From an uncultured Acidimicrobiia bacterium (GTDB taxonomy: Bacteria; Acidobacteriota; Terriglobia; Versatilivoradales; Versatilivoraceae), in NCBI GenBank assembly GCA_963786955.1, contig CAWBAT010000003.1:299654-363653 (forward strand): DNA of 64,000 nucleotides. Reading direction: 5' to 3'. The notes below the pieces were generated by a model that was not told where the DNA came from, did not search any database, and worked only from the letters and a program-made list of their open reading frames with translations. Below, in pieces: positions 1 through 6,455 of the stretch (position 1 is the first letter of the stretch; the number at the start of each line of letters is the position of its first letter). A program made the translations under genes and the position numbers.

Positions 1-1174
1 CTGTGTCCAATCAGACAGCTGGATTTACACCAGCGCCACCCAAGGCTCACAGCCCCCACCCAGCTTTAGCTGCTGAACAAGCGGGTCGGTTCAAACCGCA
101 CCTGATCTCGCAGCACATAATAACAGGCCCGCGCCAGCTTGTGAGCCAGGGCCTTAATTGCCAGCGTCCGATTGACGGCGGCTGTTTTCCGTTCCACAAA
201 TCGTCGGGCTGACCCATACGACCGGGCCGCGTGGGTCGCTGCCTCCACAAAGGCCCAGGCCAGATACCGGTTGCCGTTATGGCGGTTGTTCTCCCCTTTC
301 TTCTTCTGGTTGCTCAACCGGGTGCTGGCGACACAGCGGCAGTAAGAGGCGTAATCACCGACTTGAGGGAATCGCCCGATGTCGCCGGTCTCCAGCCAGA
401 TGGTCAGGGCGAGAATTGGTCCCACCCCATAGACACTTTGCAACAACTCAAAGGAGGCTTCCGGCTTGGCCTGGCTCTTGAGCTGTTTCTCAATGACCGC
501 AATCTGTTTGTCCAGAGCCTGGATCACCAGCAGCGAACTCTCCACCGCCAGCCTCCGTTCCCGGTCGGGAAACAACTCCCGAACCTCGGCGACACTCAGC
601 TGCCGAATCGGGGTGTCGGGACTGCGCCGTCCCTGGTGGCGACTCAACAGATTGTTGACGTGCAATAACTGACTGGTGCATTGCCTCACCAGAAAACTGC
701 GTTGTCGCAACAGATCTCTCAGTGGCCGCTGCCCAGCCGGGTAAATGTAGCCGGTTGGCAAAAGCTTCAGCCGCAGCATCTCCCCCAGCCAGCGCGCATC
801 TGACTTGTCGTCACTGTACTTGAGCCCCTGGTACTGCTGCATCGCATTCGGGTTGGCCAGCTTCACCGAGTAGCCCGCTTCCTTCAGTCCATCCACCAAC
901 CAGTACCAGTTGTAGGTCGACTCCACGGCCAGCTCCACAATCTGCTCTCGATACGGCTCTAGTTGCTCTAGCACCACCATCATCTCATTGGGCAACCGAC
1001 ACCGATGCACCACGATTCCTCCTTCGTCCAGCAGCACCAGATAACTGTTGTTGGCATGCAGATCGATTCCGCCATATAGTTTCATCAGAGGTCTCCTTTC
1101 GGGATTAAGTTCGGTACTTAACCCTGAGTCTATCCCATTCGGATAGACTCAGGAGGCCTTCTAGATGATTATCA
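1..1174 (-). mobile_element. IS110-family (IS1111-type) insertion sequence, copy A, truncated by the window edge
   Basis: Reverse complement of copy B (1799-2972). Left end CATGTC-TG|ATAATCATCTAGAAGGCCT, with the core at 1173-1174. Confidence 0.93.
66..1085 (-). CDS. IS110-family DEDD recombinase/transposase, 339 aa
   Basis: N-terminal GIDLH, VESTYNW and K-SDDKSDA DEDD motifs; C-terminal YGVG...ETGDIGRF and ALAHKLAR motifs. Identical to 1888-2907. Confidence 0.95.
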   Translation of the reverse strand: MKLYGGIDLHANNSYLVLLDEGGIVVHRCRLPNEMMVVLEQLEPYREQIVELAVESTYNWYWLVDGLKEAGYSVKLANPNAMQQYQGLKYSDDKSDARWLGEMLRLKLLPTGYIYPAGQRPLRDLLRQRSFLVRQCTSQLLHVNNLLSRHQGRRSPDTPIRQLSVAEVRELFPDRERRLAVESSLLVIQALDKQIAVIEKQLKSQAKPEASFELLQSVYGVGPILALTIWLETGDIGRFPQVGDYASYCRCVASTRLSNQKKKGENNRHNGNRYLAWAFVEAATHAARSYGSARRFVERKTAAVNRTLAIKALAHKLARACYYVLRDQVRFEPTRLFSS

Positions 1175-1199
1175 GACATGCGCAGTGTGCATGTCTGCG
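1173..1199. repeat. REP-like hairpin, target remnant of IS copy A
   Basis: CAGACATG-cgcagtgtg-CATGTCTGCG has the same stem as 1774-1800 with a different loop. Confidence 0.8.
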
Positions 1200-1367
1200 A
1201 GGAGAAAGAATGGTCATGGGTGCGCCACCCGGCGATTTCGGGAGTCATCTACTATTGTTTTCTGCTATTGCCTGCTCCGAGGTTCTGGGCCCACTGGCAA
1301 TTCTGGGGGGGCTTGTTATCTTTGTGCCTGTTGGAATATGTAAACTGCGTGGACGCAGACGTAGCAG

Positions 1368-1452
1368 GTAGCGCCGAGTTGATTTTCAACTCTGCGGCTA
1401 TTTGACACCGGAGAGGAGAAAAGCCGCGGACCCGAAAGTCGGGTCCGCGCTA
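1368..1452. repeat. Pair of GTAGCGC-type REP hairpins
   Basis: gtagcgccgagttgattttcaactctgcggct and aaagccgcggacccgaaagtcgggtccgcgctac; related hairpins occur at about 37100-37130 and 48518-48547. Confidence 0.6.
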
Positions 1453-1773
1453 CACTCGGGCAAAGCCGCGTCGCGGCGGCCTGTCTCTAGAATAGAGTGT
1501 TTGGCAAGGATCGCAGCTCCGTCAGGAGCGACCTGTTTGCAGCCATGCTCTGCGGGAAAATGGGGGGGCCGAGACCTGGAAAGCTGGTAGCCAAGATTGA
1601 CGCGCTTTTTGCGGCTATCGGGGGCTTGTACTCAGGTTATTCGCTGTCCACGATTGACCGGCATAACGTGCCGGTCAATCGTGGCTACCCATATTCTATG
1701 CCTCTACTAACTGTAAACCCGAGGACTCCTGCATCAGCTGAAGAGCCACTTTGTTGTTGAAACATTTATCTCA

Positions 1774-1800
1774 CGCAGACATGCGCAAACCACATGTCTG
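1774..1800 (+). repeat. REP-like hairpin, left half of the IS copy B target
   Basis: CGCAGACATG-cgcaaacca-CATGTC-TG. Rejoining it to 3475-3483 (CGCCACCCG) completes the stem CATGTCTGCG. Confidence 0.82.
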
Positions 1801-1819
1801 ATAATCATCTAGAAGGCCT

Positions 1820-1850
1820 CCTGAGTCTATCCGAATGGGATAGACTCAGG
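1820..1850 (+). promoter_or_regulatory. 13-bp perfect hairpin in the transposase leader
   Basis: CCTGAGTCTATCC-gaatg-GGATAGACTCAGG upstream of the AAGGAG RBS. Its function is inferred. Confidence 0.5.
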
Positions 1851-1887
1851 GTTAAGTACCGAACTTAATCCCGAAAGGAGACCTCTG

Positions 1888-2907
1888 ATGAAACTATATG
1901 GCGGAATCGATCTGCATGCCAACAACAGTTATCTGGTGCTGCTGGACGAAGGAGGAATCGTGGTGCATCGGTGTCGGTTGCCCAATGAGATGATGGTGGT
2001 GCTAGAGCAACTAGAGCCGTATCGAGAGCAGATTGTGGAGCTGGCCGTGGAGTCGACCTACAACTGGTACTGGTTGGTGGATGGACTGAAGGAAGCGGGC
2101 TACTCGGTGAAGCTGGCCAACCCGAATGCGATGCAGCAGTACCAGGGGCTCAAGTACAGTGACGACAAGTCAGATGCGCGCTGGCTGGGGGAGATGCTGC
2201 GGCTGAAGCTTTTGCCAACCGGCTACATTTACCCGGCTGGGCAGCGGCCACTGAGAGATCTGTTGCGACAACGCAGTTTTCTGGTGAGGCAATGCACCAG
2301 TCAGTTATTGCACGTCAACAATCTGTTGAGTCGCCACCAGGGACGGCGCAGTCCCGACACCCCGATTCGGCAGCTGAGTGTCGCCGAGGTTCGGGAGTTG
2401 TTTCCCGACCGGGAACGGAGGCTGGCGGTGGAGAGTTCGCTGCTGGTGATCCAGGCTCTGGACAAACAGATTGCGGTCATTGAGAAACAGCTCAAGAGCC
2501 AGGCCAAGCCGGAAGCCTCCTTTGAGTTGTTGCAAAGTGTCTATGGGGTGGGACCAATTCTCGCCCTGACCATCTGGCTGGAGACCGGCGACATCGGGCG
2601 ATTCCCTCAAGTCGGTGATTACGCCTCTTACTGCCGCTGTGTCGCCAGCACCCGGTTGAGCAACCAGAAGAAGAAAGGGGAGAACAACCGCCATAACGGC
2701 AACCGGTATCTGGCCTGGGCCTTTGTGGAGGCAGCGACCCACGCGGCCCGGTCGTATGGGTCAGCCCGACGATTTGTGGAACGGAAAACAGCCGCCGTCA
2801 ATCGGACGCTGGCAATTAAGGCCCTGGCTCACAAGCTGGCGCGGGCCTGTTATTATGTGCTGCGAGATCAGGTGCGGTTTGAACCGACCCGCTTGTTCAG
2901 CAGCTAA
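1888..2907 (+). CDS. IS110-family DEDD recombinase/transposase, 339 aa
   Basis: Same motifs as copy A; RBS AAGGAG upstream. Confidence 0.95.
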   Translation: MKLYGGIDLHANNSYLVLLDEGGIVVHRCRLPNEMMVVLEQLEPYREQIVELAVESTYNWYWLVDGLKEAGYSVKLANPNAMQQYQGLKYSDDKSDARWLGEMLRLKLLPTGYIYPAGQRPLRDLLRQRSFLVRQCTSQLLHVNNLLSRHQGRRSPDTPIRQLSVAEVRELFPDRERRLAVESSLLVIQALDKQIAVIEKQLKSQAKPEASFELLQSVYGVGPILALTIWLETGDIGRFPQVGDYASYCRCVASTRLSNQKKKGENNRHNGNRYLAWAFVEAATHAARSYGSARRFVERKTAAVNRTLAIKALAHKLARACYYVLRDQVRFEPTRLFSS

Positions 2908-2910
2908 AGC

Positions 2911-3200
2911 TGGGTGGGGGCTGTGAGCCTTGGGTGGCGCTGGTGTAAATCCAGCTGTCTGATTGGACACAGTCCCCGTCCCGATATAGGCTGATGTTTT
3001 CGAGCACGCCCAGACCGCGAGCCTGCCCGGCGCTGGTCCAAGCCGGTTGGCTTGGAGAACCACCGATTCTGTGACCCGGTCACGCCCATTGGACACGGTC
3101 TGGTACCAACGATTTTCTGGGGCGCCGCACGGCGCCAGGGGCTAATGAGGCCAATGGTCCTCGATAGCCTTGATCCTGATGGGTGCATGGACGGACTCGA
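2911..3200 (+). ncRNA. Predicted seekRNA/bridge RNA of the IS1111-type element
   Basis: GGGTGGCGC (2932-2940) is the bottom strand of the target right half and TGTCTG (2956-2961) the top strand of the target left half, both inside a stem-loop. ATGGGTG (3179-3185) matches the donor right end. RNA boundaries are approximate. Confidence 0.8.
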
Positions 3201-3450
3201 TACGAGCCGATCCTCAAGCAAGAAAACCCTGGGTGCGTGGTTCAAAAACTCGGCCGGGATCCTTCCGCCTTCTCCAGTTCGAATCATGGCTGGAGAAAGC
3301 TAAGGAATTTAGCCCGTAGACCCAGCTAAGGCCGCCGGTAGACAGCGTACGGTCCTCGATGAGCCGCTAGCTCTGAAGATCGAGAAAGGAATCTGGCAAG
3401 GGAGCCTTTGCAAAAAAGTCTACGTCGCACTCAAGGGGTAGTTTGTTCTA

Positions 3451-3474
3451 TTGACAAAGGCCTTCTAATGGGTG
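3451..3474 (+). promoter_or_regulatory. -35 half of the circle-junction promoter
   Basis: TTGACA at 3451-3456. Joining the right and left ends through the TG core gives TTGACA-17 bp-GATAAT. Confidence 0.8.
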
Positions 3475-3522
3475 CGCCACCCGAGATTTACGGGAACACC
3501 AATCTTCAAATATGATAAGGCT

Positions 3523-4098
3523 TCATTTTCGACCAGCAGCGTCAATGCTATTGGTTGGATCTGCTCCCTCCAAGTGAAACATCGGCGGTCGGTCCATAGG
3601 TCGAAGGGACATCCTTCTCCAGCAGCCGCAAGTAAACCGTGAGTTGCGTTCGATGATGGGCTGTATGCAGGACTCGCGCCAGAAGATCCAAATTCTTTCC
3701 CTTTCCACATCAAAAAAACAAACTTTCTCGAGCCACCAAGGTTCTTCCTTAGCGGCGAGAAAATTCAATCGTGGCACTGCCAACTCCACCAGGCGGGAAG
3801 CAAAATCTCCCGGCGTTTCCTGGGCGAGTAGGATCTGAGCGGGAGCAGGTTCTGGAGAGTCTAAAAACTCTCCAAAAAATCGCCGCTCTGAGAGGAGTTG
3901 ATGTTTCAGGATCTCGAGCACACTGCTGGATCGTGGATGTGGCTTAAAACTCAAATCATCTAAGGTGAACTTTCCCCAAACCGAGGCGACTTTATTTGTC
4001 TCACTGACATAGGTGTCCAGAAGATGCTGGAATTGCGGGGAAATGGCTGGGGGAATCTTCGAATCTGGAATTGAAATGGTGGAGTAACCCATAGACAT
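3523..4098 (-). CDS. DinB/YfiT-family protein, frameshifted near the C-terminus
   Basis: F(K)PHPRS...LKHQLLSERRFF and RERIWIFWR; the HTAHHRTQL motif continues in another frame. Confidence 0.75.
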   Translation of the reverse strand: MSMGYSTISIPDSKIPPAISPQFQHLLDTYVSETNKVASVWGKFTLDDLSFKPHPRSSSVLEILKHQLLSERRFFGEFLDSPEPAPAQILLAQETPGDFASRLVELAVPRLNFLAAKEEPWWLEKVCFFDVERERIWIFWRESCIQPIIERNSRFTCGCWRRMSLRPMDRPPMFHLEGADPTNSIDAAGRK

Positions 4099-4420
4099 TT
4101 ATTATACCCCTGTAAAGATGACCAGAATGGCCCGTATACTGCGAAGCAAAAACTTCTTCATGCTAGCAACCCATGGCGAAACGTCAACCAAGGTACTATT
4201 GTCCCACCGCACATTGCGGCAATATATGTCGTGATTGCGTGCTCTCTTTCTACCCTCCAAGAACCCAGTGGGATCATAGCCTTGGGGCCTGTTTCAGGGT
4301 AAACAGTGGCTTCTGAATGTCCCCCATTTTATTGGACACAAATGATGCGAGATTATAGGATGTCGGCCTAATAATGAACCGCTCACTTGGAACGATCCGT
4401 CTTCGCAATAGGAAAAGGGA

Positions 4421-5776
4421 ATGAGTTCGGGAAACAGCTCTACTGTCAGTAGCCAGCGGAATGCTTTCGCACGTTTCTTTAAGTCTGAAGCAACGAGCAG
4501 CATCCTTCTTCTGTTGTGTACGATTGTCGCCCTCCTGTGGGCGAACTCTTCAAGATCCGAGCTGTATAGTCATATTCTCCAAACTAAGGTTGGGCTTTCA
4601 TGGGGGGATTCGAAGTTTGCGTTGTCTCTGCACCACTGGATTAATGACGGCTTGATGACCTTGTTCTTCTTCATCGTCGGTTTGGAAATCAAGCGAGAAA
4701 TCGTGGTCGGCCAACTCTCATCTTTCAAGAAGGCCGTTCTCCCTGTCGCTGCGGCCGTAGGTGGCATGGTTGTGCCCGCGCTGATCTACCTGAGTCTCAA
4801 CGCTGGAAGCGAAGGGGCTCGCGGATGGGGCATTGCCATGGCGACGGATATTGCCTTTGCCATTGGAATTTTGTCCCTGCTGGGTTCGCGCGTCCCGGTG
4901 GGCCTCAAACTGTTTCTCACGGCTCTAGCCATTACGGACGACCTGGGAGCCGTTCTCGTGATCGCCGTGTTCTATACGGACCATATACGAGTAGGGGCAC
5001 TGTTCGCCGCGGCTGTCTTTCTCGCTCTGCTGGTTGTCGCGCAACGGTTGGGAATCCGGCTTGCCTCTGTTTATGCGGTCCTGGCTATTGGTGTCTGGGT
5101 GGCGATTGTGATGTCCGGTGTGCATGCCACCGTGGCAGGGATTCTCGTCGCCATGGTTGTGCCGGTACGCCCACGCATTGAGCCCAAGAAATTCCTCAGC
5201 ATTGCCCGTGACCGCATTGGAACCCTTGAAAACAATCTCGCATCTGAGAGCACGACTCTTGTTCGAGAGCAGATCGATGCCATCGAAACATTGCATATTG
5301 CCACGAAGGACGTGATCCCAGCTGGACTCTCATTTGAGCACTATCTCCATCCGGTGACGGCCTACGTCATCATCCCGTTATTCGCGCTCTTCAACGCCGG
5401 TGTAGCGGTCAACGCCGGTGTCGTCAGTGCGTTCGTCAATCCCGTCAGTCTCGGCGTTCTCATGGGTCTCTTCGTGGGTAAGCAGGTCGGGGTCACCCTT
5501 GCAAGTTGGATTGCGATTCGCCTTCGTGCAGCCGAAATGCCTCCGGGAGTCACTTGGGGACAGATCTATGGAGCGGCCATCTTGGCGGGAATTGGTTTTA
5601 CGATGTCGCTTTTTGTCGCGGATCTCGCTTTTCCGAGCGGGACTCTGATTGGCCCGGCCAAGCTGGGCATCCTGGCCGCTTCAACACTGGCTGGCGTTGC
5701 GGGATATGGAGTACTCCGCATCGCCTTACGGAAGGTGGCTAAGCCGGCCAATATGCCATCAAGCTCCCTTCACTAA
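4421..5776 (+). CDS. nhaA: Na+/H+ antiporter NhaA
   Basis: HWINDGLM, GLEIKRE, ATDIAFA, LAITDDLGA, SGVHAT and GIGFTMSLF motifs. Confidence 0.95.
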   Translation: MSSGNSSTVSSQRNAFARFFKSEATSSILLLLCTIVALLWANSSRSELYSHILQTKVGLSWGDSKFALSLHHWINDGLMTLFFFIVGLEIKREIVVGQLSSFKKAVLPVAAAVGGMVVPALIYLSLNAGSEGARGWGIAMATDIAFAIGILSLLGSRVPVGLKLFLTALAITDDLGAVLVIAVFYTDHIRVGALFAAAVFLALLVVAQRLGIRLASVYAVLAIGVWVAIVMSGVHATVAGILVAMVVPVRPRIEPKKFLSIARDRIGTLENNLASESTTLVREQIDAIETLHIATKDVIPAGLSFEHYLHPVTAYVIIPLFALFNAGVAVNAGVVSAFVNPVSLGVLMGLFVGKQVGVTLASWIAIRLRAAEMPPGVTWGQIYGAAILAGIGFTMSLFVADLAFPSGTLIGPAKLGILAASTLAGVAGYGVLRIALRKVAKPANMPSSSLH

Positions 5777-5780
5777 ACTC

Positions 5781-6455
5781 TCACTTGACCAAACCACGTT
5801 TTCCCATCTCCTTGTAAATCGCCTTGGCGATCCCCGCCACAGCGTCTTCGATAGATTTTGGATTCGTGGTTTGAGTCACGCTGGTCCAGAGCAGTTTGTC
5901 ATCCTTGATCGAGTAAATGGTTGTTTCCACTTGGTAAATCTTATCGGTGTAGACGTAACCCGGGTCATATAGGGACGACCAGGCCCAGCCATAATATCCC
6001 CAAAAAGTTCCATAATAGGGTGGATAGGCTCCGGGTACATAGGTGACCTTGTCCTGAGCTCGAAGCAGGCGCATGACGACCGCTCCATCAAATCCTAACT
6101 GCTGGATTTTCTGTTTGGCCTGATCTTTATTGAGGAAATCTGATTCATTAAGGACATTATAGGCTTGGAACGGATTGCCCTTTTTGATCTCAAAGGCCAT
6201 GTAGTTTTCTACTATTTGACGATTCCCCGGGTCCTTGGCAATGCAAATAGTCAAAATATGGTTAAAAGAATAATTTCCGATACCGGGAGCTGCCCAACTC
6301 TGAATCAGCTTGGTGCCAGCCCAAACTTCGGGGAGAACAGGGGTGGTCCCAAAAAGCATTAGAAACAAAACACACCGAACAAAGAACAGACGCACAGGAA
6401 ACCTCCTATTTAAATAATGAATATTTCTTATCTCTTCTTCTATTTTGGATGACAT
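5781..6455 (-). CDS. Hypothetical exported protein (DUF4136-like)
   Basis: Hydrophobic N-terminus, Y/G/W-rich segment, ETTIYS...KLLW motif. Start codon uncertain. Confidence 0.6.
   Translation of the reverse strand: MSSKIEEEIRNIHYLNRRFPVRLFFVRCVLFLMLFGTTPVLPEVWAGTKLIQSWAAPGIGNYSFNHILTICIAKDPGNRQIVENYMAFEIKKGNPFQAYNVLNESDFLNKDQAKQKIQQLGFDGAVVMRLLRAQDKVTYVPGAYPPYYGTFWGYYGWAWSSLYDPGYVYTDKIYQVETTIYSIKDDKLLWTSVTQTTNPKSIEDAVAGIAKAIYKEMGKRGLVK

Follow-up and report, generated by a model that had tools for sequence, protein, structure and literature searches.

A conserved third module, related to the target loop, in the predicted guide RNA of an IS1111-type insertion sequence

The element and its non-coding region

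The DNA analysed here (the window) is a stretch of 64,000 nucleotides from contig CAWBAT010000003.1 of an uncultured bacterium. At positions 1801-3474 of its plus strand it carries an insertion sequence of the IS1111 type. The transposase (recombinase) gene of the element (1888-2907, plus strand) is an open reading frame of 339 amino acids (aa) with an N-terminal DEDD (RuvC-like) domain and a C-terminal Transposase_20 domain, which match the Pfam families PF01548 (DEDD_Tnp_IS110) with E 1.4e-13 and PF02371 (Transposase_20) with E 1.5e-13, respectively. Its length lies within the range of 330-350 aa given for the IS1111 group in the available text of Siddiquee et al. (2024; PMC11187229). The non-coding DNA measures 87 nucleotides (nt) upstream and 567 nt downstream of the gene, and a longer downstream side is a trait of the IS1111 group. 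The two domains, the downstream non-coding region and the site-specific insertion described below confirm the assignment to the IS1111 type, which had been made earlier from the letters of the window (the sequence-only reading).

The genome holds three identical full copies of the element, two of which are in the window, and the element ends were set by aligning the three copies with their flanks. The left junction reads CATGTC-TG-ATAATCATC and the right junction CTAATGGG-TG-CGCCACCC, from which the insertion site is deduced to be CATGTC-TG-CGCCACCC, with TG as the core and without duplication. All three copies lie in this same 16-bp site and in the same orientation, with one TG per junction. 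The left target half CATGTC with the core TG (1793-1800, plus strand) is shared by 3/3 copies (CAC/CGC ATGTCTG), and the right target half CGCCACCC (3475-3482, plus strand) is identical in 3/3.

Our sequence comparisons show that the 3' non-coding region encodes a putative bridge or seek RNA with three modules, called loops 1, 2 and 3 here. The motifs that the sequence-only reading had reported for the three loops were all found where it had placed them. Loops 1 and 3 correspond to the known target and donor loops, and loop 2, which lies between them, is the subject of most of this analysis.

Target and donor loops

Relatives of the element were collected as the best 80 of 538 genome-contig loci and the best 80 of 572 metagenome-contig loci (confirmed relatives); 164 loci contained the transposase C-terminus and 152 had at least 330 nt downstream of the gene. 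The covariation set consisted of 105 non-redundant elements, 86 with a left flank and 92 with a right flank. Guide strands were taken beside conserved anchors, flanks were defined by the conserved ends, and the agreement at each position was set against that in permuted pairings.

Loop 1, the target-binding loop (2916-2977, plus strand), is closed by a stem of GGGGGCTGTG at 2916-2925 and CACAG(T)CCCC at 2968-2977, and contains a hairpin at 2940-2954. Its 5' strand GGGTGGCG (2932-2939) pairs with the top strand of the right flank CGCCACCC (3475-3482), to which it is the reverse complement at 8/8 positions. The 3' strand TGTCTG (2956-2961, or (C)TGTCTG at 2955-2961) equals the left flank plus core (1795-1800) at 6/6 positions, and so pairs with the bottom strand. 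Among the relatives, the 3' strand covaries with left-flank positions -2 to -7 with z of 9.2, 9.0, 7.1, 7.1, 7.0 and 5.5 (n=86), and the 5' strand with right-flank positions +1 to +8 with z of 5.4, 1.6, 8.6, 8.1, 5.8, 3.9, 3.4 and 4.5 (n=92). The covariation score was reached by 0/5000 permutations, and an offset scan around 34 reconstructed empty sites gave sharp loop 1 peaks with z of 6.9 and 8.1. The earlier claim that loop 1 matches both strands of the insertion target is borne out by the matches and by the covariation; of the insertion site, loop 1 reads about 7 left-hand and 8 right-hand bases. In the closest relative, L008 (G002:C11), which is inserted at the same site CGCCACCC, the loop 1 5' strand GGTGTAGCG mismatches the flank at 2/9 positions; this could result from insertion off consensus or from drift in this copy.

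Loop 3, the donor-binding region (3104-3192, plus strand), is a multi-branch loop with hairpins at 3121-3136 and 3140-3169. Its 5' strand ACGATTTTC (3109-3117) agrees at 7/9 positions with the reverse complement of the left end GATAATCAT, and its 3' strand ATGGGTG (3179-3185) equals the right end plus core (3468-3474) at 7/7. These donor-strand matches, noticed before, are now accompanied by covariation: the 3' strand covaries with the right end with z up to 11.3 (n=92) and the 5' strand with the left end with z up to 8.5 (n=86), with GGG, GTG, GAG and GCG among the examples. Loop 3 thus reads the two ends of the element itself.

Loop 2 as a duplicate of the target loop

Loop 2 (3010-3103, plus strand) is borne out by folding, covariation and profile homology. 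Its closing stem pairs CCAGACCG with CGGTCTGG (3010-3017 and 3096-3103). On the 5' side of the interior there follow GAGCC (3019-3023), the 5' strand GCCCGGCG (3025-3032), CTGG and a hairpin (3033-3062), and on the 3' side the 3' strand CCGATTCTG (3063-3071), a spacer (3072-3087) that holds a small hairpin at 3072-3082, and TTGGAC (3089-3094). In the minimum-free-energy fold of 2905-3210 the stems of both loop 1 and loop 2 are present, with z of -2.42 and 1/100 shuffles as good.

The module is widely kept. A profile match (nhmmer E<=1e-8) was found in 131/152 loci, and 109/152 loci, with transposase identities of 48-100% at the amino acid level, can be aligned across the three modules at each of the six anchor columns. 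In seven more loci outside the six-anchor alignment, some of them without a profile match, three modules are visible by eye. The whole non-coding region is shared with a relative of the same genus group at 78% identity, and a more distant relative (63% aa) keeps the three modules, the stem and hairpins of loop 2 having undergone compensatory changes. For 20 diverse sequences, the loop 2 closing stem is 96.5% paired, compared to 78.3% when shuffled (0/500 as high) and 17.5-41.5% when slid, and 7/8 of its pairs show changes on both sides. In 52 elements (48 distinct sequences), the loop 2 stem was present in the minimum-free-energy fold of 52/52 and the first hairpin in 47/52. Loop 2 is therefore conserved and structured in homologues, and the opposite outcome, which would have spoken against a functional third loop, was not observed.

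The origin of loop 2 is indicated by its similarity to loop 1. The loop 1 profile matches 10/52 loop 2 segments and the loop 2 profile matches 11/52 loop 1 segments (E<=0.01, best 2e-8), while neither profile matches any of the 52 loop 3 segments or any of the 52 shuffled segments. From these mutual matches we take loop 2 to be a duplicate of the target loop, as had been proposed. The broader proposal that one scaffold occurs three times holds for loops 1 and 2 and not for loop 3, which gives no profile match and shares only short motifs with them. Of the two hairpins described as insertions, the first is no insert: it is also present in loop 1, where it is shorter (median length 14 nt compared to 24 nt in loop 2). 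What is particular to loop 2 is the spacer that follows CTG (median 14 nt, range 7-99). Loops 1 and 2 together span a median of 189.5 nt (range 165-286).

What loop 2 retains is the complete scaffold of a target loop, namely GAGCC, (C/T)TGG, the hairpin, CCA, a strand ending in the core TG, TTGGAC and the covarying stem. Between these invariant motifs, its guide columns are as variable as those of loop 1 (1.2-2.0 bits). We conclude that loop 2 arose by an ancient duplication of loop 1, that it immediately precedes the donor strands on their 5' side and that the RNA contains it as a fixed component throughout the clade.

Sequences followed by the strands of loop 2

In a target loop, each of the two strands should be complementary to about 6-8 bases of the insertion site and should covary with them. 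In loop 2 the signal is restricted to the flank positions next to the core. The 3' strand follows the left flank at -3 with z of 7.3 (observed 0.90, expected 0.65) and at -4 with z of 4.3, and the 5' strand follows the right flank at +3 with z of 7.0 and at +4 with z of 4.9. Farther out, the summed z was 1.0 for left -5 to -8 (859/5000 permutations as high) and 2.6 for right +5 to +8 (34/5000 permutations as high), and the latter was also counted as not significant. Against the donor, no diagonal was found for either element end. Examined for covariation with any flank or end sequence, as the sequence-only reading had proposed, the loop 2 guide gives a signal at the core-adjacent flank positions and none at the distal flank or the element ends. 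The window copy has 4 and 4-5 matching bases: its loop 2 5' strand, 5'-GCCCGGCG, is able to pair with CGCC in the right flank, and the ...TCTG of its 3' strand equals TCTG in the left flank. The loop 2 strands, as judged from these sequence patterns, follow the target only at the core and the adjoining one or two bases, four or so at most. In the offset scan of the 34 empty sites, the best loop 2 offset was the junction itself, with a weak signal (z 2.6 per strand), and nothing was found elsewhere within +-80 nt.

The relatedness of the elements was considered by means of the transposase tree. For left -3, among 12 independent contrasts, loop 2 changed in the same way as the flank in 6.5 and in the opposite way in 0.2 (median p 0.03), and loop 1 in the same way in 9.5 and in the opposite way in 0. 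Loop 2 gave no signal in the tree contrasts at positions other than left -3. The contrast test has little power, since even for loop 1 a p<0.05 is attained at left -3 to -5 only, and at no right-hand position.

A comparison was also performed between close sister pairs. The loop 2 5' strand is often unchanged or changed elsewhere while loop 1 has been retargeted (L055/L061, L074/L078 and L072/L086). Where a position was changed in both loops, the changes were concordant at 10/20 positions on the 3' side and at 2/34 on the 5' side. Only these concordance counts are used, because the 2x2 tables of the sister pairs are confounded by overall divergence.

Partners of other kinds were not apparent. 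When the loop 2 guide columns were compared with all 346 profile columns for an RNA-RNA partner, only scattered cells and no diagonal were obtained, and among the best intra-element matches to the site predicted from loop 2 in 12 elements there was no consistent place. In a few elements (L048, L068 and L094) the loop 2 3' strand fits the left flank better than loop 1 does; for example, AATACTTG in L048 matches the left flank at 8/8 and AGGTTTG in L094 at 7/7.

Evidence from RNA libraries

Logan contigs from three RNA libraries of different studies, which represent close relatives, span the transposase 3' end, loop 1 and loop 2. In window coordinates the spans are 2862-3123, 2557-3116 and 2782-3078. 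Several of the RNA-library contigs stop at 3116-3123, within the most conserved stretch common to different elements, and we read these stops as assembly breaks. The contigs hint that the region is transcribed together with the gene, with the reservation that they come from relatives and that DNA carry-over is possible.

Element ends, genomic copies and target sites

The left element end (1801-1887, plus strand) consists of ATAATCATC, a subterminal inverted repeat, the 5' leader and a ribosome-binding site, and GATAATCATCTAG is conserved in the left ends of relatives. The right element end (3451-3474, plus strand) consists of TTGACA at 3451-3456, which resembles a -35 element, AGGCCTTCTA at 3458-3467, and ATGGG with the core TG at 3468-3474; TTGAC occurs at an equal distance from the right end in relatives. 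The subterminal inverted repeats are TAGAAGGCCT (1810-1819) and AGGCCTTCTA (3458-3467), and the terminal extensions past them are 9 nt on the left (after the core) and 5 nt plus core on the right. Joined in a circle, the two ends would be predicted to form a promoter, with TTGACA, 17 nt and GATAAT. The non-coding tail after loop 3 (3193-3450, plus strand) holds a conserved motif GAAAACCCTGGGTGCG at about 3221-3243. The tail is about 260 nt long, compared to roughly 100-150 nt in most relatives, and its motif GAAAAC..GGGTGCG keeps its relative position in many relatives, irrespective of their end sequences. A search of window 1-6000 with the Rfam 15 covariance models gave 0 matches at E<=1.

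The second identical copy in the window lies at 1-1172 on the minus strand, with its 3' part cut by the window start. The two copies are thus inverted and about 630 bp apart (1173-1800), each within a hairpin of the target family, and such an opposed pair could invert or delete the DNA between the copies. Beside the left end of the minus-strand copy, the other arm of its hairpin (plus strand, 1190-1230) reads CATGTCTG, a 25-nt insert (1198-1222) ending in ATGGGTG, and then CGCCACCC. This looks like an occupied target in which only the last bases of a right end are left, and an earlier plus-strand copy may have been their source.

The element is inserted in the 3' arm and tail of a repeated hairpin, of which the genome, with all contigs taken together, has 110 examples with the pattern AGACAT[GC]-N5-10-[GC]ATGTCT. 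For the window copy, the left target half (1793-1800) is the 3' arm of the hairpin CAGACATG...CATGTCTG. Most of the family hairpins end in the tail TCGCCACCC, with T where the used sites carry the G of the core. All three exact TG-core sites are occupied. The exact 16-mer target has no empty copy in the genome; near copies number 35 with one mismatch and 34 with two. The other arm of the target hairpin was also tried as a site for loop 2 and was rejected; the left arms at the three copies are CGTGAGAT, CGCCAGTC and CGAGGAGA, and the predicted sequence is CGCCGGGC.

Discussion

Our preferred reading, to which we give slightly less than an even chance, is that loop 2 is an accessory docking module without an address of its own. 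It would bind a recombinase dimer in the manner of a target loop, next to the donor loop, and would hold only the core-proximal bases of a target-type DNA. The most plausible DNA of this kind would be the element's own flanks at the two junctions, so that loops 2 and 3 would grip the donor junctions while loop 1 seeks a new site.

Several observations weigh against the docking module. The permutation z-scores ignore relatedness, and under independent contrasts only left -3 survives for loop 2. The core-adjacent agreement could stem from duplication or from exchange between the loops instead of from pairing with DNA. One relative, L054, has lost the interior of loop 2. The RNA-library contigs that span loop 2 come from relatives, carry no readable ends, strand or level, and may include DNA carry-over. 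Finally, according to the available text of PMC11187229, the short RNA of ISEc11, equivalent to loop 1, was by itself a better support of movement than the long RNA (42% compared to 15%), and an extra loop was therefore unneeded in that assay.

A purely architectural role, in line with the structural domain named among the options of the sequence-only reading, is itself rather doubtful but nearly as likely as the docking module. Loop 2 would then be a folded branch of the donor multi-loop or a platform for protein that never pairs with DNA, and its core-adjacent agreement with the target would be a leftover of the duplication together with shared constraints on the scaffold. Such a role is consistent with the distal guide positions, which do not covary with the flanks (859/5000 and 34/5000 permutations as high), and with the sister pairs, in which the 5' strand of loop 1 is retargeted and that of loop 2 is not (2/34 doubly changed positions concordant). 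It also agrees with the donor-site multi-loop described for IS1111 RNAs in the available text of Durrant et al. (PMC11208160) and with the finding, in that of PMC11187229, that a short seekRNA is enough for ISEc11. On the other hand, variable guide columns (1.2-2.0 bits) amid invariant motifs are the layout of a displayed strand, and the full target-loop scaffold is retained, including the strand that ends in the core TG. At left -3, 6.5 of the 12 independent contrasts go with the target and 0.2 go against it, and on the 3' side 10/20 doubly changed positions are concordant. A further reading, that loop 2 is closed in cis, supposes that its own spacer pairs with the guide-like strands and mimics a target-bound loop, by which it would be a regulator or an assembly mimic that binds the recombinase without DNA. 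The mean longest pairing of the 3' strand with its own spacer is 4.35, compared to 3.79 with the spacers of other elements (z 5.0, 1/5000), pairings of at least 5 bp occur in 24/52 elements for this strand when 11.3 are expected, the 5' strand gives z of 3.5 (5/5000), and GGATC...GATCC recurs across several clades. Nevertheless, we consider cis closure distinctly improbable. Related elements inflate the permutation score, GGAT/ATCC hardly varies and hence offers no compensatory evidence, and only 11-13/52 elements place most of the guide pairing on the spacer side. The pairing probability of the loop 2 guides (median 0.51-0.53) is not above that of loop 1 (0.59-0.60), and the small hairpin of the window copy (3072-3082) forms inside the spacer itself. 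In general, loop 1 and loop 2 cannot be told apart by the predicted thermodynamic openness of their guides.

The two readings proposed originally for loop 2 as a guide fare worse. A second insertion specificity, which in the window copy would be about GATTCTG-CGCCGGGC, is suggested by the target-loop layout with strand sequences of its own and by the hypervariable guide columns. We regard it as very unlikely, since the predicted 15-mer has 0 sites in the genome at <=1 mismatch and 12 at two, when eight shuffled controls have 5-18, and the distal strands ignore the flanks; the proposed right half TG-CGCCGGGC is accordingly not upheld. In addition, all three genomic copies are in the loop 1 site, no second site was found within +-80 nt of the 34 reconstructed empty sites and no consistent one inside the elements, and closely related pairs keep the loop 2 5' strand while their targets change. 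The least probable reading, with hardly any credence from us, is that loop 2 is a functionless, decaying relic of a former guide loop. In favour of a relic, its distal strands do not match the target, and in L054 (3011-3260; Methylomicrobium sp. wino1, CP024202.1) the loop 2 interior is cleanly missing and the strands of the closing stem abut. However, the module is kept in 109/152 loci over 48-100% transposase identity, with invariant scaffold motifs and a stem maintained by compensation, and this conservation disfavours decay. The L054 copy may itself be dead: its genome holds 1 full copy plus fragments, one of which starts near the deletion point, runs to the right end and lies 3.5 kb away. 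For this reason, L054 has no bearing on whether loop 2 is dispensable.

Returning to the docking module, a more far-reaching extension of it, which we think rather unlikely, is that the guide RNAs of the IS1111 type are three-site RNAs, in which loop 1 reads the new target, loop 3 the ends and loop 2, as a target-type loop of short range fused to the donor multi-loop, the element's own flanks at both junctions. If this is true, one RNA could synapse a resident copy with a new site, or run excision, without a second RNA, and it would explain both the need for target-flanked donors and the purpose of the long seekRNA. Two loops are presupposed in the design rules for bridge and seek RNAs, which are now being developed into programmable recombinases. 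The natural RNA of a large IS1111 clade includes a third module derived from the target loop, with a scaffold as strictly conserved as those of the working loops. If loop 2 holds the donor flanks or an extra dimer, it bears on excision, on the requirement for flanks and on the long seekRNA, and it affects how IS1111-type systems can be minimised and reprogrammed. A module that is only architectural would still set the fold that covariance models of the clade and engineered scaffolds have to follow.

Comparison with known systems

The closest characterised systems are the seekRNAs of ISEc11, ISPa11, ISKpn4 and ISPst6 (Siddiquee et al. 2024; PMC11187229, available text). Like those elements, the present one has a DEDD transposase, a long downstream non-coding region, subterminal repeats, site-specific insertion without duplication and a predicted junction promoter. 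Loop 1 and the IS1111 seekRNAs agree in the order of their matches, the top-strand one being 5' of the bottom-strand one. The terminal extensions of 9 and 5 nt differ from the usual 7 on the left and 3 on the right. That text gives a short (82-96 nt) and a long (148-172 nt, elsewhere 145-170 nt) seekRNA, the long form having no assigned role and the span of loops 1 and 2 (median 189.5 nt) being its possible counterpart here, and reports that an IS1111 donor must be flanked by target sequence. It presents one pair of target matches only, whereas here loop 2 adds a target-type module within a 567-nt region. Direct comparison with these elements yielded little: a tblastn search of plasmids returned 775 records, all named 'IS110 family transposase' and none tied to ISEc11, IS5075 or ISKpn4, and blastn with the non-coding region as query found nothing in E. 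coli genomes.

The bridge RNA of IS621 is a single RNA with a target and a donor loop, the strands of which pair with opposite DNA strands around a shared core (PMC11208160 and PMC13626964, available texts). It differs from the RNA described here in lying 5' of the gene, in having two loops only and in the opposite order of strands. In the present element, the donor strands lie in a multi-branch loop and a third, target-loop-like module is placed between the target and donor loops. Many IS1111 RNAs hold their donor-binding bases in a multi-loop according to the available text of Durrant et al. (2024; PMC11208160), and loop 2 may be a branch of that multi-loop. The same text makes no mention of a three-loop form or of a third or additional loop. 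The statement of the sequence-only reading that characterised RNAs have one target and one donor loop agrees with the texts of PMC11187229 and PMC11208160 as far as available. The window copy and 109/152 related loci depart from this scheme of two DNA-reading loops by their third module. No third loop or second target-type loop was found in the available texts of PMC11187229, PMC11208160, PMC13626964, the 2026 review PMC13604230, the ISPpu9 paper PMC12288879 and the CazIS110-1 preprint, and a literature search on seekRNA, bridge RNA and IS1111 gave no paper on a third loop, with the limitation that figures and supplements may show such a stem-loop.

The nearest functional parallel is CazIS110-1, for which the available text of the preprint (10.1101/2025.10.25.684509) describes a target-loop-only RNA that cooperates with the full bridge RNA in direct transfer. 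The likeness is that, besides a donor loop, the reaction requires two target-type loops simultaneously, of which one works at the resident copy's flank and the other at the new site. In CazIS110-1, however, the second target loop is supplied by another RNA, truncated and identical in sequence, while here it is a diverged loop in the same RNA. The junction-gripping form of the docking module fits this cooperation of RNAs as well as the target-like flanks of the donor and the position of loop 2. We infer that loop 2 may serve a reaction of the direct-transfer type.

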